Shown here: positions 4,737-52,723 of the stretch, piece after piece | How positions within the stretch are numbered: the stretch's first letter is position 1 | How the letters are laid out: the number at the start of each line of letters is the position of its first letter | Source: an uncultured Nitrospirota bacterium | GTDB lineage: Bacteria; CG2-30-53-67 | DNA: 64,000 nt | NCBI GenBank assembly: GCA_947259355.1 | Contig: CAMYMF010000010.1 | Coordinates: 170-64,169 of the forward strand | Direction of reading: 5' to 3' | The notes under the pieces: generated by a model | What the model saw: the letters and a program-made list of their open reading frames with translations, nothing else | Databases searched by the model: none | What the model was told of the DNA's origin: nothing | Made by a program: the position numbers and the translations under genes

Positions 4737-5762
4737 ATGAGCGAGAAAGTTACTGCCCATCATTTGATCTTCCTTGTCATGCTTGGTTTCTTATTGCCTT
4801 ACACCTATGGAGGTTGCGTTGCGGCATTCAGCAGTGGCGACGGACATAAGGAGCGCATAGTTAGAGATACCCCTAACGATCATGAGGATGGATTCTCAGG
4901 TGGTTTCATCATTGTTGTCACGGAGGCCTCCGTTGATTCGCAAAATGCTCAAGCCCTTAACGGTCTAACCATCAGAGGCGATACGACCAGTATCGAACCT
5001 GAAGCATCAGCACTAGATCCGAATGCCGTCGACACTCGGATCGCGACGTATCGTCCCTTGGATTTCTCGTTGACTGTGGGGTATTCTTTAGGTCATATAC
5101 GACTCAGTCCGACGTTGTTCGGCGCGAGCCAGGCAGACACGATCCATCAAAGCGGGACTGTCGAGGGCCGTTGCGGAGGCGTCTTTTCGTACAGCTTGAC
5201 TCTGGACAAGGTCTCCAAGGAATTTTCTGGACACCTTACCTTCGAGGATTACTGTGACAAGCAAACGACTCTCTCCGGCGATCTCGATGTTATTGGCACC
5301 TTTGATTCCGATACTGAAGACGTCATAACAGCCACCCTTTCATTCGATAGCCTGCTCGCAGGCTCCTTCATTCTGGCAGGTGAGCTTTCAATCGATTTCT
5401 CAGAGCTTCCCATCCTCGCAGTATTCACCGTCCAGGCGACGGACGCTCTCTCCGGGCAGGTCTACCGCCATGAAGACTACAGCATGAACATCACCGAATC
5501 GATTGACGGTGTCGACATAGATCTCACGGGGACCTTCCACCACCCCGATCATGGATTCGTTGGTTTAGCCACGGCGGATCCACTTGTTATTCATGATGGA
5601 GATCACTGGCCGGCATCGGGCCAAATGGTCATTCAGGGAGCCAACAGCACGGCGGCAGTATTGACGGCCGTCGATCACTTGCAGTGTGGCATTATGGTTG
5701 ACACAACGGGTGATGGATTATTGGACTGGGACTCGGGAGTCCTGAATTGGATTGACTTGTAA
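4737..5762 (+). CDS. hypothetical lipoprotein/secreted protein
   Basis: Signal peptide MSEKVTAHHLIFLVMLGFLLPYTYGGC with a lipobox-like GGC. Acidic, Ser/Thr/Asp-rich body with no recognisable domain. Confidence 0.55.
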   Translation: MSEKVTAHHLIFLVMLGFLLPYTYGGCVAAFSSGDGHKERIVRDTPNDHEDGFSGGFIIVVTEASVDSQNAQALNGLTIRGDTTSIEPEASALDPNAVDTRIATYRPLDFSLTVGYSLGHIRLSPTLFGASQADTIHQSGTVEGRCGGVFSYSLTLDKVSKEFSGHLTFEDYCDKQTTLSGDLDVIGTFDSDTEDVITATLSFDSLLAGSFILAGELSIDFSELPILAVFTVQATDALSGQVYRHEDYSMNITESIDGVDIDLTGTFHHPDHGFVGLATADPLVIHDGDHWPASGQMVIQGANSTAAVLTAVDHLQCGIMVDTTGDGLLDWDSGVLNWIDL

Positions 5763-5987
5763 TGGCGGCCCCAACGCATTCCTTAATTCCTGTTTTCTCG
5801 TTGATATTTGCACGCGTAGGTCGACCACCCGCTCCGCGGGTCGGTCGAGGCCTCCCATAGAGGCTGCGCCTTTAACCGCGCACGCTCCGGAGGACGCGGA
5901 GAAAGGCAATCCCTGTCAAAGATTAAGTAGCTGAGTCAGAACCTCCGTCGATAAAGTGGACACAATCGCCTAACGGAGGATGTGTCC

Positions 5988-6089
5988 ATGCGCAGCAAGA
6001 GCAGAAAGCAGATCGAGACAGGCACGAGGAAGAAACATCGATACAGCAATGCGTTTAAGCTGACGTCGGTGACTGCAGGCGTCCGCTAG
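5988..6089 (+). mobile_element. possible IS3-family OrfA N-terminal remnant (33 codons)
   Basis: MRSKSRKQIETGTRKKHRYSNAFKLTSVTAGVR resembles the R-x-YS-x-x-FK-x-x-V start of IS3 OrfA proteins. It is truncated by a stop and lies in an AT-richer patch. Confidence 0.25.
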
Positions 6090-6215
6090 ATGACACCCAA
6101 ACAGTGTAGGCTTCCTTACTTACCCTTTTAACCTTTTCCGGTGTTTGACTCAGACACCGAATTCGTAGGGTGACTGACCCTGAACTTGACAAAGCAAACG
6201 ATAGGTGATATCTAG

Positions 6216-6707
6216 CAAATAGGAATCATTCCGATTATCGAAGAATATAAGAACCTTCGGGATATTGAACAGACGCTCATCTCGAGTTTACGTGATAAGG
6301 GATAGAGGCCCACCCCTAAACGACTTGAAATTATTCGACTTTTGGCACGGGATATCTCACATCCCGGCGTAAGGGATATTTTACGGAACGTCAGAAAGAT
6401 CGTTCCACGGATAAGCATGTCAACGGTATCTTACACCCTTGACATGATGCAGAGAGAAGGCTTGATATAAGGGCTTGAGTTCTACCACACGGACAAGCGT
6501 TAGGATATGAACCTATCGCATCATATCGACCTCGTCTGCACAACATGCGGGAAGATAACGGATTTTACGAGTGATTTGCCTTCATTATCAAAGGCTGTGG
6601 AAAAGGAAACAGGTATTAAGCTGTCAAGTATGCGGTTTGAATATTACGCCATCTGCAGGACTCGCGCGCGTGTGAAAAAGAAGAGGGGCCCTAAATTCTT
6701 TTGTTAG
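6216..6707 (+). pseudogene. Fur/PerR-family regulator pseudogene (three in-frame stops)
   Basis: A single frame reads ..LRDKG*RPTPKRLEIIRLLA..HPGVRDILRNVRK.VPRISMSTVSYTLDMMQREGLI*GLEF..DKR*DMNLSHHIDLVCTTCGKITDF.. with stops at 6303, 6468 and 6501. No clear start codon, and the C-terminal CxxC is lost. Confidence 0.75.
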
Positions 6708-6911
6708 CTAGTTTCCATCCGAAAATTAAAAGGGACACGAATTAGTTTCCAATTTGGAAACGAGCAATTTTTTCGATGAGCAAGGCCGCACAAGGGTTTA
6801 CGACGAGGCGTACTCATTGTACGTCGAGGAAGTAAGCCCGCGGAGAACGCAGCGCATCGGGTGAAACACTATTATCCACAACAGCACTGTGCCTAAGTTC
6901 AGACAACGTAA

Positions 6912-9119
<2,208 letters not shown>

Positions 9120-12823: not shown

Positions 12824-13519
12824 ATGCGAAAAGTGGATCCCCATCCAGATTATCCCCCGGAAGACGGCCAGTATCTGAGAGGCAATGATTTCTCTCCGGT
12901 TGCCGTGGCCATCATCTTGAATTGTGATGCAGACAAAATCCCGCCCGAGCTTGAAAACCTTGTACGGGCTGGGATCGAGACGGGGGCCGCCCTATCAGGA
13001 ACCGTACAAACCGAGAATATTGGATTCGAGAAAATGCTCTGTAACATCGTCTCCAATTCCAATATCCGTTATCTCATCGTAGGCGGCCCCGAATCGCCGG
13101 GCCATTTGACGGGTGAGGCTTTAAAAGCTTTGATTCATAATGGGGTGGACGAGAAGAAGCGTATCGTAGAAACCGACGCGCCCCATCCTTTTCTATTCAA
13201 CGTCTCTATGGAGATGATTGAACGCTTCCGGAAACAGCTCTCGTTGATCGACCTTCAGTTTCAGGGAGACCCCGAATTGATTCGAAAGGCCGTCTGGTGC
13301 TGTTATCAGGAAAGTCCTGTCGCGTTTCGTGGTTATTCGCTGTACGATCCAGGCGCCTACCCAGAGAGCCCTCTCAGCGGCAGGCTGACATGGCGTGTCA
13401 CCCAGCCATGGACTGAAGTGTTGGATGAAAAAGAGCGTGAGGCAAAAGAGAAAGCACTGGCGCTCATAGAGCGCTTAAAGGCAAGAGCCAAGAAAGGCAA
13501 AGAGAACCTGCAAGAGTAG
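12824..13519 (+). CDS. MtrA-like (tetrahydromethanopterin S-methyltransferase subunit A family) corrinoid-binding protein
   Basis: YPPEDGQYLRGNDFSPVAVAIIL..TENIGFEKMLCNIVSNSNIRYLIVGGPESPGHLTGEALKALIHNGVD matches the MtrA core as I recall it, including the His in the GH-TG motif. It has no C-terminal TM helix and carries a Lys/Glu-rich tail instead. Confidence 0.7.
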   Translation: MRKVDPHPDYPPEDGQYLRGNDFSPVAVAIILNCDADKIPPELENLVRAGIETGAALSGTVQTENIGFEKMLCNIVSNSNIRYLIVGGPESPGHLTGEALKALIHNGVDEKKRIVETDAPHPFLFNVSMEMIERFRKQLSLIDLQFQGDPELIRKAVWCCYQESPVAFRGYSLYDPGAYPESPLSGRLTWRVTQPWTEVLDEKEREAKEKALALIERLKARAKKGKENLQE

Positions 13520-16214: not shown

Positions 16215-17501
16215 TTAATGCCCGATCGCCTTCTTTCCTTTTGCCTTTTCAGCGAAGGTGGGCATGGGATAAACGAAATTGCCGGTCCGCGCGTCCCGAG
16301 GCCAGACGATCACCCGCTTCCCATCCTGCCATTGCACATCAACCATAGAATGGCCGACCTGGAGTCCCGTCTCATCAATATTCCAGCCGCCGTAGAAGGA
16401 CATGAATGTTAGATGCCCCAGGGCTTCTCTAACTTTATCCGAGTCGACCGAATTGGCCTTTTCCACGCCCAAGGTATAGGCCAACACCTGGGCACCGGCT
16501 TCCGCAGCATGATAATCGGGAATCATATCTTTCCCAACGGCTTTCTTGAAAAGCGTCACAAACTCGTCCTGGTCCGGACCAATCCAATGTATGCCAGCCT
16601 GTTTAGCATCGGCCTCCGCATATTTCACCCCATATTCCCAGTGCGACGGCCCGGTCACGCCTTCGGCCATGGTCGTTAAAGCCTGATAGAAAGCAGGCAG
16701 CGTCGCAGCAGCAATGAGGGACAATCCCTTCACATTGATATCGAGGTCCGCCATCTGTCGGTTGAAAAGCTGACCATCTTCAAAGTGTCCGCCGCCTAGA
16801 ATGAAGTCCGGCTTGGTCGCTTTTAGGGCCGATAGAAGGGGTGTGAGATCGGTCACACCCTTCGGATAAGTTCTCGCGAAAACAATCTCAAGGCCGAGCT
16901 TCGTTGCATGTTCCGTCGCGCCAACCATCACCATCCTGGCGAATTCAGAATCCTCGTAGGCCAGAGCAATCCTCGCGTTGGGGTCGGTTTCCTTGATCAT
17001 ATTCAGCGTGCCTTGATGATAACCCGTGGCCGGTCCGATGGTCTGAACGATGTACTTGAAGCCTTGTTGGAAAATGGCATTACTGGCACCCCCGTGATCC
17101 ATGTAACAGACCTGAAAGCTCTCCGTCACCGGCGCGCCCCGAAGGGTTAGCCCCGAACTGTAGGGAGAGAACACCACATCAACCTTATCGCGGGTCACCA
17201 GGCGGCCGATAAGACTTGTAACCGCTTCTTTGTTGGATTCACGGTCATAGTATTTGTATTCCAGGGGCACTTTCTTCCCCTCTAGCATAACCCCGCCATA
17301 GACATGATTGACCCAATCAACAATCGCCTTAATGCCGCCGACGGCCTGCTCCCCCGCCTTCGCATATTTCCCGGAAAGACAGGCTGGATGGCCGATGACG
17401 ATTTTGTCGCGACTGCCCGCAGACACCGGCGTCAGGTTGGAGAGCAGCAAATAGAGAATCCCCGTGAACACAAATAGCCCTTTCACTATTTTAGATCTCA
17501 T
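16215..17501 (-). CDS. ABC transporter substrate-binding protein, branched-chain amino acid (LivK-like) type
   Basis: Signal peptide MRSKIVKGLFVFTGILYLLLSNLTPVSA and a Peripla_BP_6-like body. AAAAGGAGG SD before the ATG at 17501. Confidence 0.88.
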   Translation of the reverse strand: MRSKIVKGLFVFTGILYLLLSNLTPVSAGSRDKIVIGHPACLSGKYAKAGEQAVGGIKAIVDWVNHVYGGVMLEGKKVPLEYKYYDRESNKEAVTSLIGRLVTRDKVDVVFSPYSSGLTLRGAPVTESFQVCYMDHGGASNAIFQQGFKYIVQTIGPATGYHQGTLNMIKETDPNARIALAYEDSEFARMVMVGATEHATKLGLEIVFARTYPKGVTDLTPLLSALKATKPDFILGGGHFEDGQLFNRQMADLDINVKGLSLIAAATLPAFYQALTTMAEGVTGPSHWEYGVKYAEADAKQAGIHWIGPDQDEFVTLFKKAVGKDMIPDYHAAEAGAQVLAYTLGVEKANSVDSDKVREALGHLTFMSFYGGWNIDETGLQVGHSMVDVQWQDGKRVIVWPRDARTGNFVYPMPTFAEKAKGKKAIGH

Positions 17502-17716
17502 TGTCAACCTCCTTTTGCATGAGTCATTCGCTCCAAATCCGCCCTCCCGTTCTTGACTCCTCATCGTCCATGTCCCCGATGCACCTCCTTCAACTTGCGG
17601 ACGGATTGTCGGATACGGCTCATATGGACGCCCCCTTGGTCATTATCTTAACTCCCTCCTTTCTCCCACATCCATCTGGGTGATTGGGCAGTCTGTTCTA
17701 CCTTCGATGGTCCGCC

Positions 17717-17961
17717 ACAAAAAAGGGCCGAACCCACCCAAGGTTTTCTCCTTCGGCAGCTCGGCCGTCTTTCCCCCACAAAGACCCGACGCTTTCTGTC
17801 AGCCTGTCACCAGGCGTTTGGCTTTATCGGGAAGTCTGGTTTTCGAGGATTCTATTGTCGATTGAAGATATCCCCTCCCCTCATTTTTTCTACTCAGGCA
17901 CCACTATAGGGACCTGTCAAGTGAACGCGGAGAAAAAATTTGAAATTTATCTGGACATGAA
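17717..17961 (-). promoter_or_regulatory. structured 5' leader with intrinsic terminator (copy A of a paralogous leader pair)
   Basis: Aligns with 36247-36492 over its whole length; the 48-nt core (17749-17796) is 42/48 identical. On the RNA strand, the hairpin GGCCGAGCUGCCGAAGGAGAAAACCUUGGGUGGGUUCGGCC is followed by U6. A conserved TTGACAG block lies at the 5' end. Confidence 0.55.
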
Positions 17962-18090
17962 ACTCGAGAAAGGCCTTGTTATAAATGCACAACAGTCGTT
18001 TCGAAAACAGAATGAACCGGCCCCAGCTTTTGATCTTTCCACGCCCCATAACGGGGCAAGGTGCCATCTAAATCTATGGCCCTTTTCGAT

Positions 18091-20195: not shown

Positions 20196-20384
20196 GTTTA
20201 TTATTTCGCTATTTCACGATGATAAATCTGCACAACCCAAACTTACCATAGCAGTACAACACAACCGTTGCACGATGTCAATGTTTATTTTTGCTTTCTT
20301 TTGAGAGAGTTGACATTTCGGCTTTCTCCGCTATTAATAATTTTATTATCATTACAGTCCACTGTTTCCCCAAGGTCAGGCAAG

Positions 20385-22505
20385 ATGAGAGCCCAGCCCC
20401 GGCTGCTTCTTTGTAGCTGCAACCAACAGCTTTCTCTTGATCCCAGATTGCTCCAGAAGAGCCTTGAATTGGGCGAAAAACCTCTCCTTTTTACATCCTT
20501 ATGTAGAAATGAACTCTATCGCCTCGAAAACCTGATTAAAAAAGAGCCGGAGACCCCTCTGCTCATTGCATGTGCCGTGGAAGCGCCCCTGTTCGAGGAA
20601 TTTCTGGGGGAAGCGCGATTTGAGGGGAACGTTTCGTTCACCAATCTCCGAGAGGAGTGTTTCTGGGTCCATGAGACGAGGGAAGCGGCCAATCTGAAGG
20701 CGGCCTCCCTCCTTCACCGGGCGATGGGTGACGCACTGGCATCCATGAACCCCATGACGCAGGAAGCGGAAATCGAGGTCGGTAACGACGTGTTGATTTA
20801 CGGCGACCGGGAATCGTGCCTGTCGTTCGCCTCGATTGTTCCGCTGCGCCTGCAGCCCTATGTGCTCGTGGAGGAAGGCTTCGCCAGAGAAACCAGACAA
20901 AGACTCCTCCAGGGGAACAAATTTGTGGTGGATGCGGGCAAGGTCCTCTCTATCGAGGGTCATCTGGGAGACTATCGGGTTGCCGTGGCCTACAACAACC
21001 CCATTGATCTCATCAAATGTGTCAAATGCCGGCGCTGTCTGGAGGCTTGCCCCAAGGGTGCCATCGATTCCTTTTACCAGATGAACAGGCAAGTGTGCGG
21101 CCCCTGTGACGCCTGCGTCGATGCCTGCGAGGCTGTGGGGGCCATTGATCTTGGCCGCAAAACGGTTCAAGAACGGGTGTTCGATCAGGTGGTGATTCTC
21201 GGCTCATCCTTTTCAATCAATTCCAATGTTCCCCCCAGAGGGATGTACTGCGTTAGACAGCCTCAAGAAAGTGACCTTCGCCCCCTGGCCTCACTCCTGG
21301 TATCCCGTGTGGGCCAGTATAGAAAACGGAAACAGATTCACTATCGTCTGGCCACCTGTGGCTGGGGCGCGTTCAAGCAAGAGGGCTGCATGCGCTGTTG
21401 TGAAGTCTGCCCCGTGTCGGCCCTCACGGGAACAGAAAAGGGAATCGACTGGGATCCGATTCGCTGCATGGGATGCGGCGCGTGTGTCTCCCGCTGCCCC
21501 AATGACTCCTTGACCTATCAGAAACGTCCGGCAAGTGAGATCCACCGCGCGATTTATGCCCTCATCTCCCCGTTGCCCGGTTCTACAAATAATGAAGATC
21601 CACCGGGGGAATCCTGTCTGCTCCTGGGATGCGAACGATGCGGCACCCGGAAGCTCCGAGCCGTGGGCGAGAAGCGACTCCCCTACCCTGCCTCCGTCCG
21701 TCCCCTCTTACTGCCATCGACGGCGCTGATCTCCGAAGATCATATGCTGGAAGCCCTGCGACTGGGCGCTGCCGGCGTTGCGATCCTTCGCTGTGATTGC
21801 ATCCCGGTGATCCCCGAATCACTTCAAGAGGCCATGGATCAGAGCCGTGAGGTTTTGGATGCCTTTGGCGCAGATGCGAAGCAGATTCGGTTGCTGGAAG
21901 AAACAGAACCCGAAAGACTGGCCGGGCAACTGACCTCCTTCGCCGAGGGGCTTACCCCCTTGCCCTGGGCGGCTCAGCAGAACCCCTTGACTTTGGATGA
22001 GAAGCGCGCAGCTCTCAAGACCGCCCTGCGGCATTTCATGGAGGCCACGGGCCATGAACCGGGCAGGATCCCGGCCGGTGCCCACCCCTCCTTTGCAACG
22101 GTCCGGCTCGATCAGGGAAAATGCACTCTGTGCATGGCCTGTGTGGCAGCCTGTCGTCCCAAGGCGTTGAGAGCCGGGGGAGGATCTCCCGAACTGCGAT
22201 GTATCGCCTGGGATTGTATCGCCTGCGGCCTGTGCGAAAGCCTCTGTCCGGAAGATGCAATCACCCTGGAGCGGGGACTGCCGCTCAGCCTCAGCGCCTT
22301 TGAAGAAGAGGTTTTGATGCAGGACGAAGCGGTGGCCTGTCCTCGGTGCGGCAAAGCCTTTATTTCGAAGACGGCCCTGCAGAAGATTCAGGCGGCGTTG
22401 GTGGAGAGTCCTCATTTTGAAGGGAATCGCCAACGGCTTCTGGAGCTGTGTGAAGATTGTCGGGTGGTTTATCTCTTTGAGAGCAATCTGGAAGACGTGA
22501 AATGA
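20385..22505 (+). CDS. large multi-[4Fe-4S] ferredoxin-domain protein heading the formate dehydrogenase operon
   Basis: Six Cys clusters (CVKCRRCLEACP, CGPCDACVDAC, CMRCCEVCP, CMGCGACVSRCP, CTLCMACVAAC, CIACGLCESLCP) plus a terminal CPRCG..CEDC. ATG at 20385; stop overlaps the next start (ATGA). Confidence 0.8.
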   Translation: MRAQPRLLLCSCNQQLSLDPRLLQKSLELGEKPLLFTSLCRNELYRLENLIKKEPETPLLIACAVEAPLFEEFLGEARFEGNVSFTNLREECFWVHETREAANLKAASLLHRAMGDALASMNPMTQEAEIEVGNDVLIYGDRESCLSFASIVPLRLQPYVLVEEGFARETRQRLLQGNKFVVDAGKVLSIEGHLGDYRVAVAYNNPIDLIKCVKCRRCLEACPKGAIDSFYQMNRQVCGPCDACVDACEAVGAIDLGRKTVQERVFDQVVILGSSFSINSNVPPRGMYCVRQPQESDLRPLASLLVSRVGQYRKRKQIHYRLATCGWGAFKQEGCMRCCEVCPVSALTGTEKGIDWDPIRCMGCGACVSRCPNDSLTYQKRPASEIHRAIYALISPLPGSTNNEDPPGESCLLLGCERCGTRKLRAVGEKRLPYPASVRPLLLPSTALISEDHMLEALRLGAAGVAILRCDCIPVIPESLQEAMDQSREVLDAFGADAKQIRLLEETEPERLAGQLTSFAEGLTPLPWAAQQNPLTLDEKRAALKTALRHFMEATGHEPGRIPAGAHPSFATVRLDQGKCTLCMACVAACRPKALRAGGGSPELRCIAWDCIACGLCESLCPEDAITLERGLPLSLSAFEEEVLMQDEAVACPRCGKAFISKTALQKIQAALVESPHFEGNRQRLLELCEDCRVVYLFESNLEDVK

Positions 22506-23191
22506 CAGACACAGCCTTTCACCAGAGTCGCCTCGGGTATTACGACTTTTTGGCGGCACTCCTGATGGAGATCCCCTCCCGGGAGACCCTGGCGCTAATC
22601 TCTCAGCGGGAGCGTCTTCCCGGTGACGCCTATCCCCATGCTTCTCTCAAGGAGGGATGGGAGATCATCGATGCCTTTCTGGATGACCGGCGGGGTGACT
22701 CGGAAGTGCAAAAGGCGGTGGCCCAGGAATTTACCGAACTCTTTCTCTCCCTCGGCGGCGGGCAGGTACTGCCCTTTGAATCCAAGTATATAGACGGAAA
22801 GCTCATGGACCGCTCCCTGGCCCGGCTCCGGCGATTCATGAAGGAGATCGGACTTGCGAAGGCCCCGAAGCTTTATGAGCCCGAGGATTCCCTCGCGGTG
22901 GAGCTGGACATTATGCGCCACCTTATCGCCAACGGGCTGAAAGAAACCAACGGTCATCACGACCGATGGCTTGCGTATCAGGAGGCATTTCTCAATAACC
23001 ATCTTCTCTGCTGGGCCATCGATTTTTTCAAGGATCTGGAAAAGGCGCCGTCAGCGAAGTTCTACAGGGGGGTTGCGAAGGTCGGATACGGTTTTTTGTT
23101 CCTCGAAAGGGAAACCTATGGCCACCTTGGCCTGGAAACCAAGAAAACACGGGGAGAAGAGATCTATGAAAAGAGAAAAAAGAAATTCTGA
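22502..23191 (+). CDS. TorD/DmsD-family redox-enzyme maturation chaperone
   Basis: ..EFTELFLSLGGGQVLPFESKY..EPEDSLAVELDIMRHL.. is the typical pattern of this family. Positioned before the Tat-dependent molybdoenzyme. Confidence 0.8.
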   Translation: MTDTAFHQSRLGYYDFLAALLMEIPSRETLALISQRERLPGDAYPHASLKEGWEIIDAFLDDRRGDSEVQKAVAQEFTELFLSLGGGQVLPFESKYIDGKLMDRSLARLRRFMKEIGLAKAPKLYEPEDSLAVELDIMRHLIANGLKETNGHHDRWLAYQEAFLNNHLLCWAIDFFKDLEKAPSAKFYRGVAKVGYGFLFLERETYGHLGLETKKTRGEEIYEKRKKKF

Positions 23192-23363
23192 GCATGGAAG
23201 AAGGGCATTTCTGAAGGGGCTGGTCGCGGGAGGGGCCGGGATCGTCGCCGCGTCTGCGGTCTCCGCAAAGAAACCACCGAAAAAGGACGGCAAACACTCC
23301 CACGAAACGCTCTACCATGAAACGCCGGAGATCCTGAAGTATTACGAGACCCTGAAATCGTGA
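23166..23363 (+). CDS. small Tat-signal protein ('formate dehydrogenase region TAT target' type)
   Basis: 65 aa, below the ORF-track cutoff as an ATG ORF. It has the twin-arginine motif GRRAFLKG and a C-terminal ..YHETPEILKYYETLKS. Overlaps the TorD-like gene by 26 nt in another frame. Confidence 0.65.
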   Translation: MKREKRNSEHGRRAFLKGLVAGGAGIVAASAVSAKKPPKKDGKHSHETLYHETPEILKYYETLKS

Positions 23364-23521
23364 TGTGCGTTTGTCTCATAAATCGGCGTACAGCGCGGCA
23401 AAACAAAGCAGCCAAGGCGTGTAACATGCGGATCGCAGGCTGCGGCCATGAGCCGAGGAACCCACAAAGGCCTGTGACGTTTTGGTGCTCTGTATGGGAA
23501 TCTTCGTGAAAGGAGTGAAAC

Positions 23522-26359
23522 ATGAGCACAGACAAGGAAGTCAAGAAGGCAAAGTCCGTTTTCCTGAGTGCTCTCTCCGGCCGGTTGTCCTCCCCGGTGA
23601 GTCGGAGGAAACTCTTGAAAACATCGGGACTTGCGATGGGAACGGGGATCGCGGCCTCCCTGGTCCCTCGCGCCCTGGTCCGGGATGCCGGGGCGGAGGA
23701 AGCCCGCAAGGATGCCTATCCGGGCTCCCAAGAGGTCCGCACGATCTGCACCCATTGTGCGGTGGGATGCGGCGTCCTGGCCCGGGTGCAGGACGGCGTG
23801 TGGGTCACCCAGGAACCGGCCCTGGATCATCCCGTCAGCCGAGGTGGTTTCTGCGCCAAGGGGGCTTCGCTACGTGAAGTAGCCTCGGGCGAGAAGCGCC
23901 TGCGCTATCCCATGAAAAAGGTTAATGGAAAATGGGAGCGGGTCTCCTGGGACACGGCCATGTCGGAGATCACCGACAAGCTTCTCAAGATCCGGGAGGA
24001 ATCGGGCCCCGATTCTCTCTTTCTCTTCGGTTCGGCCAAGTTCAACAACGAGCAGGCTTACATGCACCGCAAGTTTGCCGCCATGTGGGGATCCAACAAT
24101 ACCGACCATCAGGCGCGCATCTGTCATTCCACGACCGTGGCCGGTCTGGCCAACACCTGGGGCTACGGGGCCATGACCAACAGCCTCAATGACATCCGCC
24201 ATTCCAAGTGCATTTTCATGATCGGCTCCAATGCGGCGGAGGCCCACCCCGTCGCCATGCAGCACATCCTGGTGGCCAAAGAGAGGCACACCGCGCCGGT
24301 GATCGTGGTCGACCCCCGCTTCACGAAACTGGCCGCGCATGCCACCGAGTACGTACGGATCCGATCGGGCACCGATGTCGCCTTTATGATGGGACTGGTC
24401 AATCTCATCATCGAGAACGACTGGCACGACAAGAATTTTATCCATGATCGCGTCTACGGCTTTGACATGATGCGTAAAGAGGCAGCCCATTATTCCCCGG
24501 AGGTGGTCCAGGACATCTGCGGCGTAGAACCAGCGCAGCTGAAACGGGTCGCCAAGACTCTGGCGGACAACCGCCCGGCGACGGTGGTCTGGTGCATGGG
24601 AGGGACGCAGCACACCATCGGGAACAGCATGACCCGTTCCTACTGCATCTTACAGATGGTGCTGGGCAATATGGGAAAGTCCGGGGGCGGTGCCAATGTC
24701 TTTCGGGGCCACGACAACGTCCAGGGCGCGACGGACATGTGTATCCTCTCTCATTCCCTGCCCGGCTACTACGGCCTGTCCGAAGGCGCCTGGAAGCACT
24801 GGGCCAAGGTGTGGGATGTCGATTACGACTGGCTGGTCTCCCGCTTCGACAGTAAGGAGATGATGGGCAAGAAGGGCTTTACCGTCGCCCGGTGGTATGA
24901 AGGGGTCCTGCAGGATAAAAAGGATCTGGACCAGCGTGACAATACCCGGGCCGTCTTCTACTGGGGAATGGCACCGAATTCTCAGTCCACCATTCACAGA
25001 CTCAAAGAAGCCCTGGACAAGGTGGAACTGGTGGTCGTGATTGATCTGTACCCGAATCTGGTGTCCGCTCTGGCCGAGAGAAAAGAGAACATCTATCTCT
25101 TGCCGGCGGCCAGTCAGTTTGAGACTTCGGGCAGTGCGACCGATACGAGCCGCCATCTGCAGTGGCGATTTAAGGTGATCGAGCCCGCCTTCGAGAGCCG
25201 GCCGGATCAGGATATTATGATCGATTTCGCGAACCGGCTCGGTTTCGGAAAGGAGTACACAAAGTATATCAAGGAGTTTCCGGAGGATGCGACCCGTGAG
25301 TACAACAGAGGAATGTGGACCATTGGCTATACCGGTCAGACCCCGGAGCGGCTGAAGCGACAGGCCATGAACTGGCACACCTTTGACATCGAGACCCTCC
25401 AGGCTCAGGGCGGCCCTTCGGATGGCGAATGGTATGGCCTGCCCTGGCCCTGCTGGAATGAGGAGCACCCCGGCACCCCCATTCTCTACAACATCGACTT
25501 GCCGGTCGCAAAAGGGGGCTTGCCCTTCCGGGCACGCTTCGGAGTGGAGCACGATGGCGTTTCCCAGTTGGCAGGCAGCGGCTCCGCCAACCCCGGCAGT
25601 CAGGTGAACGAAGGCTATCCCGAGTTCACCGACAAGCGTGTCAAGGAGCTGGGGATTCCGCTCACCCCGGAAGAGGCTAAAGCCATTGAAGGAAAAAACT
25701 GGAAAACAGATCTCACGGGGACGATTGTTCGCAAAGCCATTGGCGCGGGAATGGCGCCTTTCGGGAACGCCCGATGCAGAATGAATGTGTGGAACTTTCC
25801 GGATCCCATTCCCATCCACCGGGAGGCCCTTCACTCTCCCCGCCCGGACCTGGTGGCCAAGTATCCCACCTATGAGGACAAACCGAAGCACTACCGGGTG
25901 ACCACCCTCTACAAGAGTATTCAGGACACCAACTGGTCCAAGGATTTCCCGATCATCCTCACCTCGGGACGGGTCGTCCAGCACAACGGCGGCGGCGACG
26001 AAACGAGGAGCAACATCTGGCTGGCCGAGTATGCTCCGGAGATGTATGTGGAGATGAACCCCAGGCTGGCCAACGACCTGGGGGTGCGCGACGGCGACAT
26101 GGTCTGGATCAAGAGTCCCGAGGAAAGCAAAATCAAAGTCAAGGTCAAGGTCACCGAACGGGTGGACCGGACAACCGTCTTTCTCCCCTTCCATTACGGT
26201 GGCATCTTTGAGGGGAGGAACCTCTCCGGAAACTATCCGGAGGGTACCGTCCCCTATGCCATTGGTGAATGTGCCAACACGGTCACCAACTATGGCTACG
26301 ACATCGTGACCCAGATGCAGGAAACCAAAACCGGCCTGTGCAGAATTGAGAAGGCCTAA
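23522..26359 (+). CDS. fdhA: formate dehydrogenase alpha subunit (molybdopterin oxidoreductase, Tat-exported, Cys type)
   Basis: Tat signal [14 protein letters not shown] and N-terminal [10 protein letters not shown] cluster. [23 protein letters not shown] has Cys where E. coli FdnG has selenocysteine. 945 aa. Confidence 0.93.
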
Positions 26360-26371
26360 GGAGAAAAGATT

Positions 26372-26959
26372 ATGGCACGGATGAAATTCCTCATGGATGT
26401 CTCCCGCTGCATCAACTGTGACGGCTGCACCGTGGCATGCAAGAACACCAACCACGTTCCCTGGGGTATGCACCGCAGACGGGTGGTGACCATCAACGAA
26501 GGCAAGCCGGGGGAACGGAGCCTCTCCGTCGCCTGCATGCACTGTACCAAGGCCCCCTGCATCTCCGTTTGCCCCGTAGACGTCATCTACGAAAGGGAAG
26601 ATGGGGTCGTCCTGCATGACAAGGAAGGATGCATCGGCTGCGGATACTGTCTCTGGGCGTGCCCCTTCGGCGCCCCCCAGTTCCCCGAGTCCGCTCCCTT
26701 TGGCAGTCGGGGGGGGATGGACAAGTGCACCTTCTGCGCGGGCGGTCCCGTGGAAGACTTCTCCTCCGAGGAAAGGGAGAAGTACGGCGCCAACCGGGTG
26801 GGCGAGGGGAAGCTTCCCTCCTGTGCCTCCATGTGCGCAACCAAGGCACTTCTGTCTGGGGACAGTGACAAGATTTCAGAAATCTTCAGGAACAGGATCG
26901 CCAACCGCGGGGCCGGCGGGGGAACGTGGGGTTGGAACATCGCCTATGGGAAGAAGTAG
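26372..26959 (+). CDS. fdhB: formate dehydrogenase iron-sulfur (beta) subunit
   Basis: CINCDGCTVACK, CMHCTKAPCISVCP, CIGCGYCLWACP and CTFC clusters; AAGGAG SD. Confidence 0.9.
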   Translation: MARMKFLMDVSRCINCDGCTVACKNTNHVPWGMHRRRVVTINEGKPGERSLSVACMHCTKAPCISVCPVDVIYEREDGVVLHDKEGCIGCGYCLWACPFGAPQFPESAPFGSRGGMDKCTFCAGGPVEDFSSEEREKYGANRVGEGKLPSCASMCATKALLSGDSDKISEIFRNRIANRGAGGGTWGWNIAYGKK

Positions 26960-27052
26960 ATTTTCCGAGGGGACGAGGCTTCTTTCGAAATCGACCGGAC
27001 GGAAGGGCTCCCGGCAAAGTGGCCGGGACGCCCTTCCCGGGAGGCCTGAAAA

Positions 27053-28036
27053 ATGAATCCTGGCATCCTTCAAAAGCCGAAGAGACTCCTGAGCGTGTGG
27101 CCACGGACCTTGCTGATGGTCTTCGCACTCGGGGTGCTCTGTGCGGGAATCAGTCTGGCCATGACGGCGTACAACGCAGTCCCTGTCAACGACTTCTGGA
27201 GCGCGGTGCGGCAGGGGCCGCAGGAGATCGTCGGGATGACCTTTCGAGATTTCCGTGAGGACATCCTCAAAGGAGCGGGGGGTTGGTTCTTCGCCGCCTT
27301 TATCCTGCTCCTCGGCGGCCACTATCTGATCTTTGGCCCCCATCGGTACCCCGAACCTGAAGAAAGTTCTCTCATATCCCGCTTTACCCCGGGGGAGCGC
27401 ACCATCCACTGGCTGGTGACCTCGCTTTTCATTCTACTGGCCATCACGGGCCTGCTTTTGCTCTACGGAAGGCACATTGTGACACCCATTCTGGGTCAGG
27501 AGACGTTTGCCTCTTTCGCAAAGCTGCTCAAACTCGTCCATAACTTCCTCGGCCCTGCCTTTGTGGTGGCCGTCTTCCTGATGGTCGTAAAATGGTGGCG
27601 GGACGGTGCCGTTTTCAGAGACTACGACTGGGATTGGGTCAAAAGCGGAGGGGGGTATTTGAAGAAAGGTGTGTACGCGCCGGCTGGCCGGTTCAATGCC
27701 GGACAGAAAGGCTGGTTCTGGGCGGTGATCCTGTTGGGACTGGCAACGGCCGTGACCGGTCTGATCCTCGATTTCGGCAATCTTTTCGGAGATCAGTGGG
27801 GGTTGCGTGCGGACGTGGCCACCAAGGACCTGTTCCGATATACCATGATTGTCCACGGCGTCGTGACGGTTCTCTTCGTCGGCGGTGTTCTGGTACACAT
27901 GTACATGGCCGTTTTCGCCGCGCCCGGCTCTCTGTCCGGCATGCTCAACGGAAAGGTTGAGGAGAACTGGGCCAAAGAGCATCATGACCTTTGGTATGTG
28001 GAGCAGAAAGCCAAAGAGGCCGGCGTGGCAGAATAG
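27053..28036 (+). CDS. fdhC: formate dehydrogenase gamma subunit (membrane cytochrome b)
   Basis: Multi-TM protein with His-containing helices (..RTIHWLVTSLF.., ..VHNFLGPAF.., ..MIVHGVVTVLF..VHMY..) directly after the alpha and beta subunits. Confidence 0.8.
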   Translation: MNPGILQKPKRLLSVWPRTLLMVFALGVLCAGISLAMTAYNAVPVNDFWSAVRQGPQEIVGMTFRDFREDILKGAGGWFFAAFILLLGGHYLIFGPHRYPEPEESSLISRFTPGERTIHWLVTSLFILLAITGLLLLYGRHIVTPILGQETFASFAKLLKLVHNFLGPAFVVAVFLMVVKWWRDGAVFRDYDWDWVKSGGGYLKKGVYAPAGRFNAGQKGWFWAVILLGLATAVTGLILDFGNLFGDQWGLRADVATKDLFRYTMIVHGVVTVLFVGGVLVHMYMAVFAAPGSLSGMLNGKVEENWAKEHHDLWYVEQKAKEAGVAE

Positions 28037-34189: not shown

Positions 34190-35677
34190 CTAGTCACGAT
34201 GCCGCACGAGGGTGAGTCTGTCCTGAATGCCGAAGGGATCCTTGATTTCCACCTCCCGTTGGAACGTCAGTTTCTTCTTGCCTCGGTCATCGAGGTATTT
34301 GTCCAGCTCCAGATTAACCATGAGGGGCACCGGCTCACCGGCTTGAGTCAGGGCTTGCCGCAACAACCCTTCGGCCTTCGTGGCAAAGGCAATGGCGTCG
34401 CCCAGAATGCGCATGACTTCTGTCGGATTGTGAAAACCGACCGAGTTTTCAGCACCGACGTAGAGGGAGCGGTAGAAAGCCTCTTCATAGTAATCCTTGG
34501 CTTGACCATAAAGTTCTTCGTTCAAGAGCTTTCCTGATCCCTGGGCGGCATGGACTTTCTCAATCAGTTTGGCCGCCGTGGCCGTGGCGTATCCTGCCCG
34601 CAGCATGAGCGAAACCGTCCGGTCTTGAATGGTGGTGACCTGCCCCTTCAGCCATTCGGCGCTCTCCGTATGACACTGCATGCATGCCTTCATGTCATTC
34701 TTCAGTGGGCTCGTCACCCGATGATCGGACACCTTGTGAACACCGACCTTGGTATACGGCATGTGACAGTCTGCGCAGGACGCGCCCGCCTTCCAGTGGA
34801 CGCTCTCCTTGGAGAACAATTCGTACTCGGGATGCCTCATGAAGGCCAGTTTGTACCCGGTGACCTTTTGTTTCCACTCCGCCACGGAGGGGTCGTTTCG
34901 GATCTGCCGAATGATGTTCTCAACGGAGATGTTCTCCCATTGGCTTCCGTGCCACGGAAAGTAAATGCCAACAGATTTCATCTCCTTGCTCTTTTTGATG
35001 TTGTACGTCACATGGCACTGGGCGCAAACGATGCTGCGCATCTCCTGGTTGGAGAGCGTCTCGGGATCTTTGCCCATGGTCTCGAGTGCCTTCACCAGCG
35101 TGAAGCCTCTGGAGATCTTCAAGGACATGTCCTCGTGGTGATGACAGTCCACGCACGCCACCCCCAGTTCCTGATGCTCTTTGGGGATGGCCGCATGCAC
35201 TTCTTTCCAGGGCTTGCTGTAGTAGTCGATCCCCATCTCCTTCTCGAATTTCGGCGCGTAGGGCGTTTTGCACGTCAGACAGACACCGCCGGCCCCGACT
35301 CTGGAGGGGTCGATCTCCAGTTGATCGATGAGCATGTAGGCATGCCCCCTCGGTTCGTTATACTCGACGCCAAAGCCCCATCCGCTGAAGAGCAGCGCCA
35401 TGAAGGGGAACTCCGACAACTTGTCATAGGTGATCCTGTCGGCATCGAAGCCTCGTTTGTATTTGCTTTTTCCTGCAGGCGTGGGCTCCTTGGTCCTCTC
35501 CCACAATTCGTACTCCACAGGATAGGCCTTGCCCCAGGCCGCCGGATCCATTTCGCCCGCAGCGATTTTCACCGGCCGGACCTGCTCACTCTTGGGCGGC
35601 TGGCAGCCAGAAAGCCCAAGGGCTGCCAGGCCCATCACCGTGCACCATACCCAAGTGCATCGACCTGTCCATTTCAT
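34190..35677 (-). CDS. nrfA: ammonia-forming cytochrome c nitrite reductase, pentahaem subunit
   Basis: CLTCK (CxxCK haem 1) plus four CxxCH motifs (CVDCH, CAQCH, CADCH, CMQCH). Lipoprotein-type signal LSGC. GGAGG SD before the ATG at 35677. Confidence 0.93.
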   Translation of the reverse strand: MKWTGRCTWVWCTVMGLAALGLSGCQPPKSEQVRPVKIAAGEMDPAAWGKAYPVEYELWERTKEPTPAGKSKYKRGFDADRITYDKLSEFPFMALLFSGWGFGVEYNEPRGHAYMLIDQLEIDPSRVGAGGVCLTCKTPYAPKFEKEMGIDYYSKPWKEVHAAIPKEHQELGVACVDCHHHEDMSLKISRGFTLVKALETMGKDPETLSNQEMRSIVCAQCHVTYNIKKSKEMKSVGIYFPWHGSQWENISVENIIRQIRNDPSVAEWKQKVTGYKLAFMRHPEYELFSKESVHWKAGASCADCHMPYTKVGVHKVSDHRVTSPLKNDMKACMQCHTESAEWLKGQVTTIQDRTVSLMLRAGYATATAAKLIEKVHAAQGSGKLLNEELYGQAKDYYEEAFYRSLYVGAENSVGFHNPTEVMRILGDAIAFATKAEGLLRQALTQAGEPVPLMVNLELDKYLDDRGKKKLTFQREVEIKDPFGIQDRLTLVRHRD

Positions 35678-35693: not shown

Positions 35694-36155
35694 TCACAGG
35701 GTTTCGATGGCACCACTGCGCTGATGGGATACCCGTCTGTGACAGCTCCAGCATTTCCTTTCGGTGTCCATCAGCGACACGGTGGTGGCGTGGCATCGGA
35801 CACAGTTTCTCTGCAGGACCTTTTCCCCGTGAGCAGTCAATTCAATCCGCTCGGGAACCATGCCGGAGTAAAAGAAGAACACATCCTTCAACCCGTCAAT
35901 TGCCTTCCACACATAGTGGGCGCTCACCGTCTCGTTGGGGAGATGGCAGTCGACACACTGTTTCCGCCGGTGCGCTCCGGTATGGCTCCAGGCTTCGTAC
36001 TCGGCCTCCATAACATGGCAGCTGACACAAAAGTCCGCCTGATCCGATTTCGCGAGCAGCTTGGGTGGACCGAGTAGGAAGAACAGGGAAACAACCAGCA
36101 GAGCGACCGTGATACCAAGGTAAAGACCTGCCTTTTTCCGTCCCGACTTGCCCAT
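35694..36155 (-). CDS. nrfH: NrfH, NapC/NirT-family tetrahaem membrane cytochrome
   Basis: N-terminal TM helix and four CxxCH motifs (CVSCH, CVDCH, CVRCH, CWSCH), immediately upstream of nrfA. Start could also be 36197. Confidence 0.9.
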   Translation of the reverse strand: MGKSGRKKAGLYLGITVALLVVSLFFLLGPPKLLAKSDQADFCVSCHVMEAEYEAWSHTGAHRRKQCVDCHLPNETVSAHYVWKAIDGLKDVFFFYSGMVPERIELTAHGEKVLQRNCVRCHATTVSLMDTERKCWSCHRRVSHQRSGAIETL

Positions 36156-36246
36156 TTTCTCACCCCCTTCCTCCCCCGAATCTGTGAGGCCTTCCATCGC
36201 CACCGTTTTCCCGAGGCCTGTCGGCAACAGCCTCCTTCTGCCGTCG

Positions 36247-36492
36247 AACAAAAATGCCGGACGCCGAAGTTTCATCCTTCGGCAGCCCGGCCATCTTTCC
36301 CCCACCAAGACCCGTGACTTTCCGCCCCCCCCTCACGAAGGGTTGAGCTTTCTCGGGAAGCCCCTTGTCCTTAATGGTTTTCCTTTGTTGAGTATAGCGG
36401 CAGCGGCCCCTCCCTCAGCTTCTATGATTCACCAGGTTGAGCATCTGTCAAGTCGGTGAGAAAAGAATTTGCTGTCCGTCGAAACGCATGAA
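36247..36492 (-). promoter_or_regulatory. structured 5' leader with intrinsic terminator (copy B of the paralogous leader pair)
   Basis: Aligns with 17717-17961; the 48-nt core is at 36275-36322. On the RNA strand, the hairpin GCCGGGCUGCCGAAGGAUGAAACUUCGGCGUCCGGC is followed by AUUUUUGUU, 92 nt before the nrfH ATG. Confidence 0.55.
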
Positions 36493-36835
36493 CACTTTTG
36501 TTACAAAACCACGACAGTCTAGCTGAAGAAACACATCACACACCTTGCGAGCCGCTTGGCAGCAATTGGGTATAGACCGTTTCTCTTGGTGCGGCCATTG
36601 CAGGCGGGATGATCGTGGCGTGCACCCGATTGGGCCCGCTGGTGGAATCTCCCCATAGCATTGCTCCAGGTGACGTGCCGAGCGCGGGAAAAAGGGATTG
36701 CTCCCTGTCGTATCTTGTAGGAAAATAATCAAGAGAGGTAAGGATTCAAAGTATTCTGAGACCGAAGCGGCCCTTGGAAGAAAGGGCTGCAGAGAGTGGA
36801 CGAAAAGCACCACGATGGCAGGAGGGAATCCAATC

Positions 36836-40720: not shown

Positions 40721-41710
40721 TTATGCCGGGGGTTCGGCTTCCCCCAACGGGGGGGATGGGGGTTTCTTTCTTCTGACATGGGGCGGTTTCTTCTTCGGCC
40801 GTTGCGTCTCGGCATCCCGCCAGATCACGACCTGGTTGCGCCCGGCTTTCTTAGCCGCATAGAGAGCCTCATCGGCCCGGCAGATGGTCTCTTTCATGGA
40901 AAGCTCGGCAGCCATGGCAGTCAAACCGATGGACGCGGTGATATGGATGAGCAGCGTGTCGTCGCAGGTGACCGGGGTCCGGGAGAGGCCGACTCGGAAA
41001 CGGTCTAGGATGGTATGGGCCGTTTCGACGGGAGTGCTCGGAAGACAGATGAGAAACTCCTCCCCGCCGTAACGGCAGAACCAGTCGTAGGGTCGGAGAT
41101 TGTTGCTGAAGTACTCGGCGGTGACCCGCAGCACGTGGTCCCCTATTTGGTGTCCGTAGGTGTCGTTGACCCTCTTGAAATGGTCGAGGTCCAGAATGGC
41201 GATGCTACAGGGCTCCCCCGTACGATCCACCCGGGCGTGCTCCTGAAAGAGTATGGGGAACATGGCCTGGCGGCTGTAGGCCCCCGTCAGACAGTCGAAC
41301 ATGCTCAGCATTTCATGAAGACTCTCCTTCAACAGGAGCATCTCGTGGAACAGGTTCTGCTCCTCCTTCATGAAGGCCAAATACTCCCTGTCGGTGATCG
41401 GCCCTCCCGCCCTCGCTTTTCGGGCAATACGCCGGACCTGATCGTGCATGGCCTCATGGACTCTATCGATAGTGATGAAGTTGGGATGATCGAGAAGCCC
41501 CGGGTGATCCTGATCGTAGTACCAGCGACCAAATGCGCAGTACTGGTGACTGTTGCGCGCGAGGTATTCTTCACCCACGGGCAGGGAGCAAATCAACGTA
41601 CGGTGCCACTGGGTTATCCAGTATTCGTGGTCGGCCATGGCGGATTCGAGGCTCTGAAGGATTGCCCGTATCTCCTCCGCCGTGAGGTGCTGAAGATGAA
41701 GTGCGGACAT
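40721..41710 (-). CDS. diguanylate cyclase with N-terminal CZB (zinc-binding) domain, DgcZ-like
   Basis: GGDEF domain with RYGGEEFLICLP. The N-terminus ..SHQYCAFGRWYYDQDHPGL..RVHEAMHDQV.. fits the chemoreceptor zinc-binding domain. Basic, Pro-rich C-terminal tail. Confidence 0.8.
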   Translation of the reverse strand: MSALHLQHLTAEEIRAILQSLESAMADHEYWITQWHRTLICSLPVGEEYLARNSHQYCAFGRWYYDQDHPGLLDHPNFITIDRVHEAMHDQVRRIARKARAGGPITDREYLAFMKEEQNLFHEMLLLKESLHEMLSMFDCLTGAYSRQAMFPILFQEHARVDRTGEPCSIAILDLDHFKRVNDTYGHQIGDHVLRVTAEYFSNNLRPYDWFCRYGGEEFLICLPSTPVETAHTILDRFRVGLSRTPVTCDDTLLIHITASIGLTAMAAELSMKETICRADEALYAAKKAGRNQVVIWRDAETQRPKKKPPHVRRKKPPSPPLGEAEPPA

Positions 41711-41935
41711 GAAGCGAAGCCCGTCCTTTCCTGAAATCACGGGTCTGTCGCCATCCTGCCCCCCTTGCTTTATTTTACTTCATATTCCCCAGGAGTCAAG
41801 GCTGGCCGACAGAAGTGAGGCGCCGCAGCATGTGAAGCACCGTTTGGCCGTTGTGTTGCGATCCGACCGCAGGGGCTTCCGCCGGCGCAGCAAATATGCT
41901 ATAGTCAGTGCAGTCCCGAGCATCTGCGAAAAGGT

Positions 41936-52635: not shown

Positions 52636-52723
52636 CGTATATTTCTTATACAGCATGGTTAATAAATAATCAACATTTTTCGCCCGGGACGGATGAAGAA
52701 CCTCTTTTGGCAAGGCTCGCAGG

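Follow-up and report, generated by a model that had tools for sequence, protein, structure and literature searches.

Two c-di-GMP-I (GEMM-I) type leaders, probably transcriptional ON switches, upstream of nrfHA and of an orphan solute-binding-protein gene

Two related leaders and the genes behind them

The window, that is the whole 64,000-nt stretch of DNA that was analysed, carries two leader regions of similar sequence on its minus strand. The first, copy A, precedes the gene of a predicted periplasmic solute-binding protein (SBP), and the second, copy B, precedes nrfH, the first gene after it, which is followed by nrfA. The features of both loci are given below in the direction of transcription. 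The aptamers were located with Rfam and with R1, a covariance model built from the two window copies and an orthologous leader. Two loci from relatives also appear, L125 (the closest relative with a long contig) and L130 (a metagenome contig).

Copy A
17976-17997, minus strand: far-upstream block GACTGTTGTGCATTTATAACAA, an imperfect dyad TGTYGT-N6-RTAACA (segment z = 5.2 between the copies)
17915-17920, minus strand: TTGACA, likely -35 element, followed by the conserved TGGTG; CTTGACAG is invariant in copies A and B and L125
17872-17883, minus strand: 5' G-box TGAGGGGAGGGG, located close to or at the 5' end predicted for the leader; common to copy A, copy B, L125 and L130
17752-17832, minus strand: c-di-GMP-I (GEMM-I) type aptamer, with extended P1 17748-17834 (Rfam and R1)
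17719-17766, minus strand: predicted intrinsic terminator, hairpin 17766->17726 and U6 at 17724->17719 (MFE folds)
16215-17501, minus strand: gene of a 428-aa periplasmic solute-binding protein, Peripla_BP_6, LivK/UrtA-like (PF13458, 153 bits)

Copy B
36498-36519, minus strand: far-upstream block GACTGTCGTGGTTTTGTAACAA (segment shuffle test)
36424-36451, minus strand: promoter-like TTGACA, 16-nt spacer, AATCAT (scan, 10/12 matches; 0.1 expected in shuffles)
36407-36417, minus strand: 5' G-box TGAGGGAGGGG, conserved in the same set as that of copy A
36277-36357, minus strand: aptamer of the c-di-GMP-I clan, with extended P1 36274-36360 (Rfam and R1)
36247-36292, minus strand: predicted intrinsic terminator, hairpin 36292->36256 and UUUUUGUU (U5GUU, 36254-36247) (MFE folds)
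35694-36155, minus strand: nrfH, encoding the quinol dehydrogenase subunit, a tetrahaem protein, of cytochrome c nitrite reductase (149.9 bits on TIGR03153, cut-off 134.2; Pfam Cytochrom_NNT)
34190-35677, minus strand: nrfA, ammonia-forming cytochrome c552 nitrite reductase, 495 aa (P0121; PF02335, Cytochrom_C552, 504 bits)

When window positions 17650-18000 and 36180-36530 (both minus strand) were aligned with MAFFT, 78% of the columns were identical over 350 nt. A preliminary description of this DNA had aligned 17961->17717 with 36492->36247, and the correspondence was found to hold along the whole of that length. All the shared blocks that it had named were recovered, namely AAATT.TTTTCT, CTTGACAG, TGAGG(G)GAGGGG, GAAAACCA and CTTCCCGA[T/G]AAAGC, and so was its 48-nt core with 42 identical positions, the copies differing at six. 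A degenerate 39-nt pattern of this core occurred exactly twice in the 64-kb window (0 expected, 100 shuffles).

The similarity was unevenly distributed in a segment-wise shuffle test. It was strongest in the aptamer (z = 19), followed by the far-upstream segment, 90 nt upstream of TTGACA (z = 5.2, 0/500 shuffles), the segment from TTGACA to the aptamer (z = 3.3, 8/500 shuffles) and the 3' arm of the terminator (z = 3.0). Between the terminator and the ribosome-binding site (RBS) it was not significant (z = 1.3). The alignment had suggested that copy A might keep a relic of the RBS and start codon of nrfH; this was rejected, as the similarity there is at shuffle level. As had been claimed earlier, no ORF is conserved between the copies, nor is a start codon, and a leader peptide after the G-box was discarded for the same reason.

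Identity of the aptamers

When the whole window was scanned with Rfam at gathering thresholds, exactly two matches were returned, one in each leader and both in clan CL00126. Copy A matched RF01051 over the full length of the model (positions 1-87 of 87) with 49.1 bits against a gathering score of 35; three non-canonical pairs were present in this alignment. Copy B matched RF03167 (c-di-GMP-I-GGC), also over its full length (1-80 of 80), with 60.1 bits against a gathering score of 59, and a second, weaker match of the same clan, likewise above its own threshold, was suppressed in the scan. On R1 the copies scored 108 bits (A) and 106 bits (B), and these were the only two matches of the model within the window. 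Permissive E-value scans of each leader gave no other credible Rfam family, only chance-level matches. The approximately 100 nt upstream of the aptamer were also considered as the site of a further aptamer, second or tandem, or of some other known RNA, and this was rejected, given the chance-level Rfam matches there and only two R1 matches in the window.

The preliminary description had recognised a riboswitch-type structured leader with an intrinsic terminator, and this reading was borne out by the Rfam matches and the terminator folds. It had been unable to match the leader to any riboswitch class and had recommended an Rfam search of both copies; this search gave a clean match to an existing clan, c-di-GMP-I/GEMM-I, in each of them, the outcome that it had named as showing the RNA to be known and not novel. 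Its expectation about the likely signal did not hold either. By their sequence, the leaders appear to be ordinary c-di-GMP-type aptamers; the RNA class is a known one, and they would bring nothing new to riboswitch biology.

Both copies carry the GNRA loop GUGA on their first hairpin. In many, though not all, GEMM-I members, this tetraloop docks into a receptor in the second hairpin. The second hairpin (P3) of the window copies is short: the receptor-like segment CUAAgg...cuAuG of RF01051 is deleted, although the GNRA loop is kept. In most relatives P3 is extended by 2-4 U-A pairs. Compared with Vc2 of Vibrio cholerae, an aptamer of the RF01051 type, the window copies share the three-helix junction, the GNRA-capped and the second hairpin, and the contact nucleotides G20, A47 and C92. 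They differ from it in the short P3 with its deleted tetraloop-receptor-like positions and in a clade-specific run of G in the loop. Further differences lie in the expression platform, which is an overlapping intrinsic terminator, in the genes, nrfHA and an orphan binding protein, and in the host, which is uncultured and probably Nitrospirota-like.

Conservation of the helices

R1 was searched over 100 sources, mostly loci fetched from one-genome-per-species contigs by a pattern for the 3' part of the aptamer, and 94 matches were obtained. In the resulting alignment 92.3% of the cells were occupied by standard pairs, and 14 of the 23 pairs had changed on both sides. None of 500 shuffles reached these values for any of five measures, and pairing fell to 31-51% when the partners were slid by 1-3 columns. 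Most of the covariation came from P1, the closing pairs and the GNRA hairpin. In the second hairpin the search pattern had preset the 3' strand, which is thereby uninformative on covariation and conservation. A comparison of copies A and B alone already showed two G-C to C-G swaps in the GNRA hairpin. P1 and two hairpins, meeting at a three-way junction, are backed by compensatory changes across the 94 relatives.

Predicted terminators and the probable direction of the switch

The U6 tract of copy A ends the predicted terminator about 218 nt before the ATG at 17501, close to the distance of about 215 nt at which a GC-rich hairpin with U6 had previously been placed. The 17-nt 5' arm of this terminator (17766->17750) lies inside the aptamer, where it forms the 3' strand of helices P3 and P1, and copy B uses the 3' half of its aptamer in the same way. 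In the MFE folds of aptamer plus downstream sequence, the first hairpin is kept and GGCCGnGCUGCCGAAGG, the 3' strands of P3 and P1, pairs with its downstream complement. The terminator fold of copy A has -53.9 kcal/mol, compared with -31.0 kcal/mol for the best fold that keeps the aptamer, and the corresponding values for copy B are -57.3 and -26.3 kcal/mol. The terminator fold is thus 23-31 kcal/mol more stable than any aptamer-keeping fold, and secondary-structure energies alone never favour the aptamer in either copy. In stepwise folding the terminator takes over once its 3' arm is transcribed. A simple terminator scan found neither of the two terminators, which is explained by their bulged stems. 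In folds of the relatives, the U-runs can pair with the A-rich loop of P3.

Because the terminator borrows its 5' arm from the 3' half of the aptamer, only one of the two structures can exist at a time, and a separate anti-terminator is not involved. It follows that an aptamer locked by its ligand should prevent termination, which corresponds to an ON switch. As the energies never favour the aptamer, its function would depend on stabilisation by the ligand and by tertiary contacts, together with kinetics. We consider it probable that both leaders are c-di-GMP-I (GEMM-I) riboswitches acting as transcriptional ON switches. The analysis establishes the RNA family, the contact nucleotides, the covariation of the helices and the incompatibility of aptamer and terminator; which ligand is bound, that it switches the leader ON, and that control is kinetic and co-transcriptional are what we infer.

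In the mechanism that we propose, the transcript would start near the G-rich box, at about 17885 in copy A and 36418 in copy B, downstream of the TTGACA promoter, and some 50-60 nt further on the GEMM-I aptamer would fold, consisting of P1, the GNRA-capped hairpin and the short second hairpin. GGCCGnGCUGCCGAAGG would double as the 5' arm of the long GC-rich terminator with its U-run. When the ligand is absent, the far more stable terminator would displace the aptamer and transcription would stop before the coding region. Binding of c-di-GMP at the three-helix junction (G20, A47, C92) would lock the aptamer while the polymerase passes, the terminator would not form, and read-through would lead to transcription of nrfHA in the case of copy B or of the orphan solute-binding-protein gene in the case of copy A.

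The switch might instead be turned OFF by its ligand, or act mainly on translation or RNA stability rather than on termination. OFF switches reportedly exist among other c-di-GMP-I riboswitches, for example Cd1 of C. difficile. The additional G-rich elements described below, complementary to the 5' strand of P1, could add alternative folds, and the 218-nt spacer between terminator and start codon in copy A is long. This reading is nevertheless improbable. The identity of the terminator 5' arm with the 3' half of the aptamer, with no intervening anti-terminator, is the topology of an ON switch, the overlap layout was found in 64 of the 88 evaluable relatives, and the ribosome-binding sites are no part of the switching region, being placed far enough downstream of it.

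Contact nucleotides and the probable ligand

The equivalents of G20, A47 and C92 are present in both copies, as located through the Rfam model alignments. Among the 94 relatives, the G20 column holds G in 84 and A in seven, and A47 is invariant (94/94); the C92 column also has C in 94/94, a value that is not independent, as this column was preset by the search pattern. A47 stacks between the bases of the ligand. In Vc2, whose numbering is used here, G20 forms a Hoogsteen pair with G-alpha of c-di-GMP and C92 a Watson-Crick pair with G-beta, and an A at position 20 (A14 in Gs1761) defines the cGAMP-sensing GEMM-Ib subclass (PMC6140456). Copies A and B and L125 have G at this position, so the window copies are not of the A20 cGAMP type.

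The aptamers could still sense 3',3'-cGAMP or be promiscuous, like those of Geobacter GEMM-Ib, and several observations fit such a behaviour. The context of copy B, a respiratory operon with multihaem cytochrome, resembles the Geobacter GEMM-Ib regulons; the fetch pattern recovers loci of Desulfuromonadaceae, Pelobacter and Geobacter as well; and A20 does occur in the seven relatives mentioned. The leaders of Geobacter pgcA, omcST and omcAHG share with the window copies the aptamer fold and a terminator-based platform. They activate transcription and lie upstream of multihaem c-type cytochrome respiratory genes, and the likeness would extend to activation if the window switches act as proposed. 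In Geobacter, GEMM-Ib riboswitches upstream of cytochrome operons raise transcription when the ligand is made (PMC6456294). The Geobacter aptamers, however, have A20 and prefer the cGAMP made by a Hypr GGDEF enzyme (Ser348), whereas those of the window have G20 and a canonical Asp/GGEEF enzyme nearby. With G20, Vc2 binds c-di-GMP in the picomolar range and cGAMP only at ~10 uM (PMC6140456).

The only GGDEF enzyme in the window is a DgcZ-like diguanylate cyclase (40721-41740, minus strand), which passed NF007380 (269 bits, cut-off 256). A CZB and a GGDEF domain were recognised in it, together with the motifs NDTYGHQIGD and GGEEF and an RxxD I-site. The combination of Asp and GGEEF acts solely as a diguanylate cyclase (PMC6456294). 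Its presence suggests that the organism can make c-di-GMP, and a cGAMP-responsive or promiscuous switch is on these grounds regarded as very unlikely.

Slightly less probable again is that the aptamers are members of the c-di-GMP-I-GGC variant class (RF03167) with some other ligand. The RF03167 gathering score of 59 is just exceeded by copy B (60.1 bits) and by its L125 orthologue (61.9 bits), and the short second hairpin of the window copies fits the shape of this family. The consensus lines of RF03167, GACGCGAA (GACGCGAAgCc), and RF01051, GACGCAAA (GACGCAAAgCc), from which the meaning of 'GGC' was deduced, differ visibly at the equivalent of A47, right after the first hairpin (P2). The signature of RF03167 is a G at this place, but both copies and all 94 relatives have A, as in RF01051. 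Moreover, copy A fails RF03167 (48.6 against 59) and passes RF01051 (49.1 against 35). The slightly better score of copy B on RF03167 is attributed to the short second hairpin and not to the signature nucleotide.

A(N)GGA motifs in the leaders controlled by CsrA/RsmA stand in hairpin loops, usually several of them, with one overlapping the Shine-Dalgarno sequence. The last alternative, raised in the preliminary description, is that a protein acts on the leader, either in antitermination or as CsrA bound to GGA in a hairpin loop. The AGGA that follows the aptamer in both copies and the conserved G-rich boxes in the leaders would fit it, but it is highly implausible. Each leader has a single AGGA, situated 90-218 nt from the RBS, and this motif makes up the 3' side of P1: it is conserved, covaries with the opposite strand across the 94 relatives and is largely paired in the terminator. 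A known ligand-binding aptamer also accounts for the whole conserved core. The earlier statement that AGGA is exposed in both terminator loops did not hold either: in copy A both G of the motif pair within the stem and AGAAAA forms the loop, and in copy B only GA lies in the loop.

Promoters, G-rich elements and the origin of the pair

TTGACA is located 86-128 nt upstream of the aptamer in the window copies and is followed by TGGTG; most relatives have a TTGACA-N17-TGnTAnnAT promoter 40-60 nt upstream of the aptamer. In copy A no clean -10 element was seen and the promoter scan gave no full sigma-70 match. A sigma-54 promoter at TGGTG was rejected, the GG-N10-GC spacing being absent from every copy.

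The 5' G-box was evaluated as a general feature of the subfamily and discarded as such, as it was found in 21 of 87 upstream regions, which is about chance. A second G-rich element is the P3 loop of the window copies, which reads GUGGGGG; a GGGG run was present in only 5 of 94 loops. Both elements are complementary to CUUCCC, which is the 5' strand of P1. The ligand-free consensus obtained with RNAalifold had the G-box paired with this strand in 3/3 leaders, without compensatory changes, and single-sequence folds of the 5' segment were no more stable than shuffles in the two window copies (z = 0.27 and -0.19). The complementarity could represent an anti-P1 element or a hairpin that stabilises the 5' end, or it could mean nothing. 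That these clade-specific additions, together with the shared upstream dyad, form an extra layer of control is a speculative option to which we give little weight; the layer could consist of a helix that competes with P1 and so sets the threshold for c-di-GMP, or of a binding site for another factor. If true, respiratory nitrite ammonification in this uncultured lineage would be gated by c-di-GMP and a second input.

The far-upstream block has the consensus GACTGTYGTGnnTTTnTAACAA and is common to copies A and B only, not being conserved in L125. The aptamers of the two copies are 78% identical, a value that either of them also reaches with aptamers of unrelated genomes (77-84%), so the similarity of the core reflects conservation of the family. 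The paralogy proposed in the preliminary description is accordingly upheld: the core provides no evidence for it, but the flanks and the P3 loop do, as the distal TTGACA..TGGTG, the 5' G-box and the G-run of the P3 loop are common to A and B and point to a common origin. The copy linked to the SBP gene is absent from the SBP orthologues and the copy linked to nrfH recurs in relatives, which suggests that copy A reused an nrfH-type cassette. Most simply, then, copy A would be a reused copy of an nrfH-type promoter-riboswitch-terminator cassette, and the pair would represent such a unit redeployed before an unrelated gene.

Controlled genes and their neighbourhood

The nrfH-linked aptamer was detected in two relatives. 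In L125 (NrfA 86%) it lies directly upstream of nrfH (61.9 bits with Rfam), and in L130 (NrfH 70% identity) it lies before nrfH as well (103 bits with R1). Six loci with sufficient upstream sequence (L127, L128, L131, L134, L136 and L137) had no aptamer before nrfHA. On this comparison of sequences the link to nrfHA is real, but restricted to a narrow clade. The relatives found through NrfA are named Nitrospirota or Thermodesulfovibrionales, and those found through the SBP are named Deltaproteobacteria or Desulfatiglans.

The gene behind copy A had been described as an amino-acid ABC binding protein. This label is a guess at family level: the protein belongs to Peripla_BP_6, reaches none of the NCBIfam cut-offs, and lacks permease or ATPase genes beside its own. 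No livHMGF homologues (permease or ATPase) were found anywhere in the window, which makes the SBP an orphan here. Its orthologues, with 75-83% identity, are followed by livHMGF-type genes. The three nearest orthologous loci, L120, L122 and L124, gave no Rfam riboswitch match, and R1 found none in L120-L124; a riboswitch ancestral to the SBP gene was discarded, being absent at the SBP orthologues examined. Their upstream regions showed no nucleotide similarity and no visible insertion junction. Since the aptamer is missing from most nrfHA loci and from all the SBP orthologues examined, its link to these genes is likely young and could be non-essential.

Neither nrfH nor nrfA nor the SBP gene of the window stood beside any of 119 pattern-matched aptamer loci. 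The genes downstream of these aptamers were very diverse, including PAS kinases, Usp, CBS and NmrA proteins, sigma factors and two multihaem cytochromes. Such diversity is expected for GEMM-I. In a literature search, no paper tying GEMM riboswitches to nrfA was found, and the association with nrfHA and with an orphan SBP is apparently unreported. The nrfHA wiring would be mildly new, with a parallel in the cGAMP control of Geobacter cytochromes. If the proposed function is correct, a second messenger of the sessile lifestyle would be tied to nitrite-to-ammonium respiration in an uncultured anaerobe.

Between the two riboswitches, positions 20268-28036 hold a formate dehydrogenase cluster with genes for the alpha subunit, an FDH3-type beta subunit and a gamma cytochrome b, together with a TorD/NarJ-like chaperone and an HdrA/FlpD-like Fe-S protein. 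With nrfHA, this cluster makes up a coherent formate-to-nitrite respiratory neighbourhood.

Leader elements outside the aptamer

The leaders of copy A, which precedes the Peripla_BP_6 binding-protein gene, and copy B, which precedes nrfH, share further elements beyond the GEMM-I aptamer. The G-rich box also occurs in L125, the closest nrfHA relative with a long contig, and in L130, a related metagenome contig.

17976-17997 and 36498-36519 (minus strand): far-upstream block GACTGTYGTGnnTTTnTAACAA, common to both copies
17872-17883 and 36407-36417 (minus strand): G-rich box GAGGGGAGGGG, at the leader's predicted 5' end
L125 ~530-545 and L130 ~5-20: G-rich box GAGGGGAGGGG, at the leader's predicted 5' end

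The far-upstream block holds an imperfect dyad, TGTYGT-N6-RTAACA, and in copies A and B alike a TTGACA lies 57-66 nt downstream of it. The block may be a transcription-factor site; L125 does not conserve it. In all four leaders the P3 loop carries a GUGGGGG run, and CUUCCC of the P1 5' strand is complementary both to this run and to the G-rich box. The box and the run are specific to these four leaders.

Genes near the riboswitches

A diguanylate cyclase is encoded 4.4 kb from copy B, and the interval separating copies A and B contains a formate dehydrogenase cluster.

40721-41740 (minus strand): DgcZ-like diguanylate cyclase, CZB zinc-sensor domain and GGDEF
20268-28036 (plus strand): formate dehydrogenase cluster, comprising the next five genes
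20268-22505 (plus strand): HdrA/FlpD-like Fe-S protein
22502-23191 (plus strand): TorD/NarJ-family chaperone
23522-26359 (plus strand): molybdopterin alpha subunit, 945 aa
26372-26959 (plus strand): FDH3-type beta subunit (315 bits; cut-off 240)
27053-28036 (plus strand): gamma cytochrome b
62568-63812 (plus strand): second Peripla_BP_6 binding protein
47750-48532 (plus strand): PEP-CTERM-anchored protein (exosortase substrate, biofilm-matrix type)
51256-52713 (minus strand): sigma-54 enhancer-binding protein
6924-9119 (plus strand): KatG catalase-peroxidase
12824-13519 (plus strand): MtrA-like protein

The active site of the cyclase is of the canonical Asp/GGEEF type, and the protein also has an RxxD I-site; it is a local source of the presumed ligand. 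Together with nrfHA, the formate dehydrogenase cluster looks like a formate-to-nitrite respiratory chain. The second Peripla_BP_6 protein and the one under riboswitch control share 31% identity, and no GEMM match was found upstream of the second gene.

A further c-di-GMP enzyme adjoins the riboswitch-controlled nrfHA of L125, a HAMP-PAS-GGDEF-EAL protein of 960 aa (5003-7885), 2.3 kb downstream of nrfA and preceded by a phosphonate-type binding protein. In the Nitrospirota MAG L127, nrfHA has no riboswitch; an IS21-family pair (rve transposase and IstB ATPase, 6337-8486) lies immediately 3' of it.

GEMM-I aptamers in other genomes

Aptamers from five fetched loci have adenine as nucleotide 20 (A20), which is the signature of the cGAMP type.

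L022:5885-5972 and 6078-6159: two A20 aptamers in tandem, MAG labelled Nitrospirota
L087:3763-3846: A20 aptamer
L058:1614-1702: A20 aptamer
L042:23-110: A20 aptamer
L031:1209-1289: A20 aptamer

Their MAGs are labelled Nitrospirota, Thermodesulfovibrionia, Gemmatimonadota, Bacillota and 'delta proteobacterium', and fall outside Geobacter/Pelobacter, the group where the cGAMP-type subclass is best known. In six loci (L097, L099, L100, L116, L060 and L031) two GEMM-I matches lie no more than 1-2.5 kb apart, and multiple riboswitch-controlled units are therefore clustered in these genomes.
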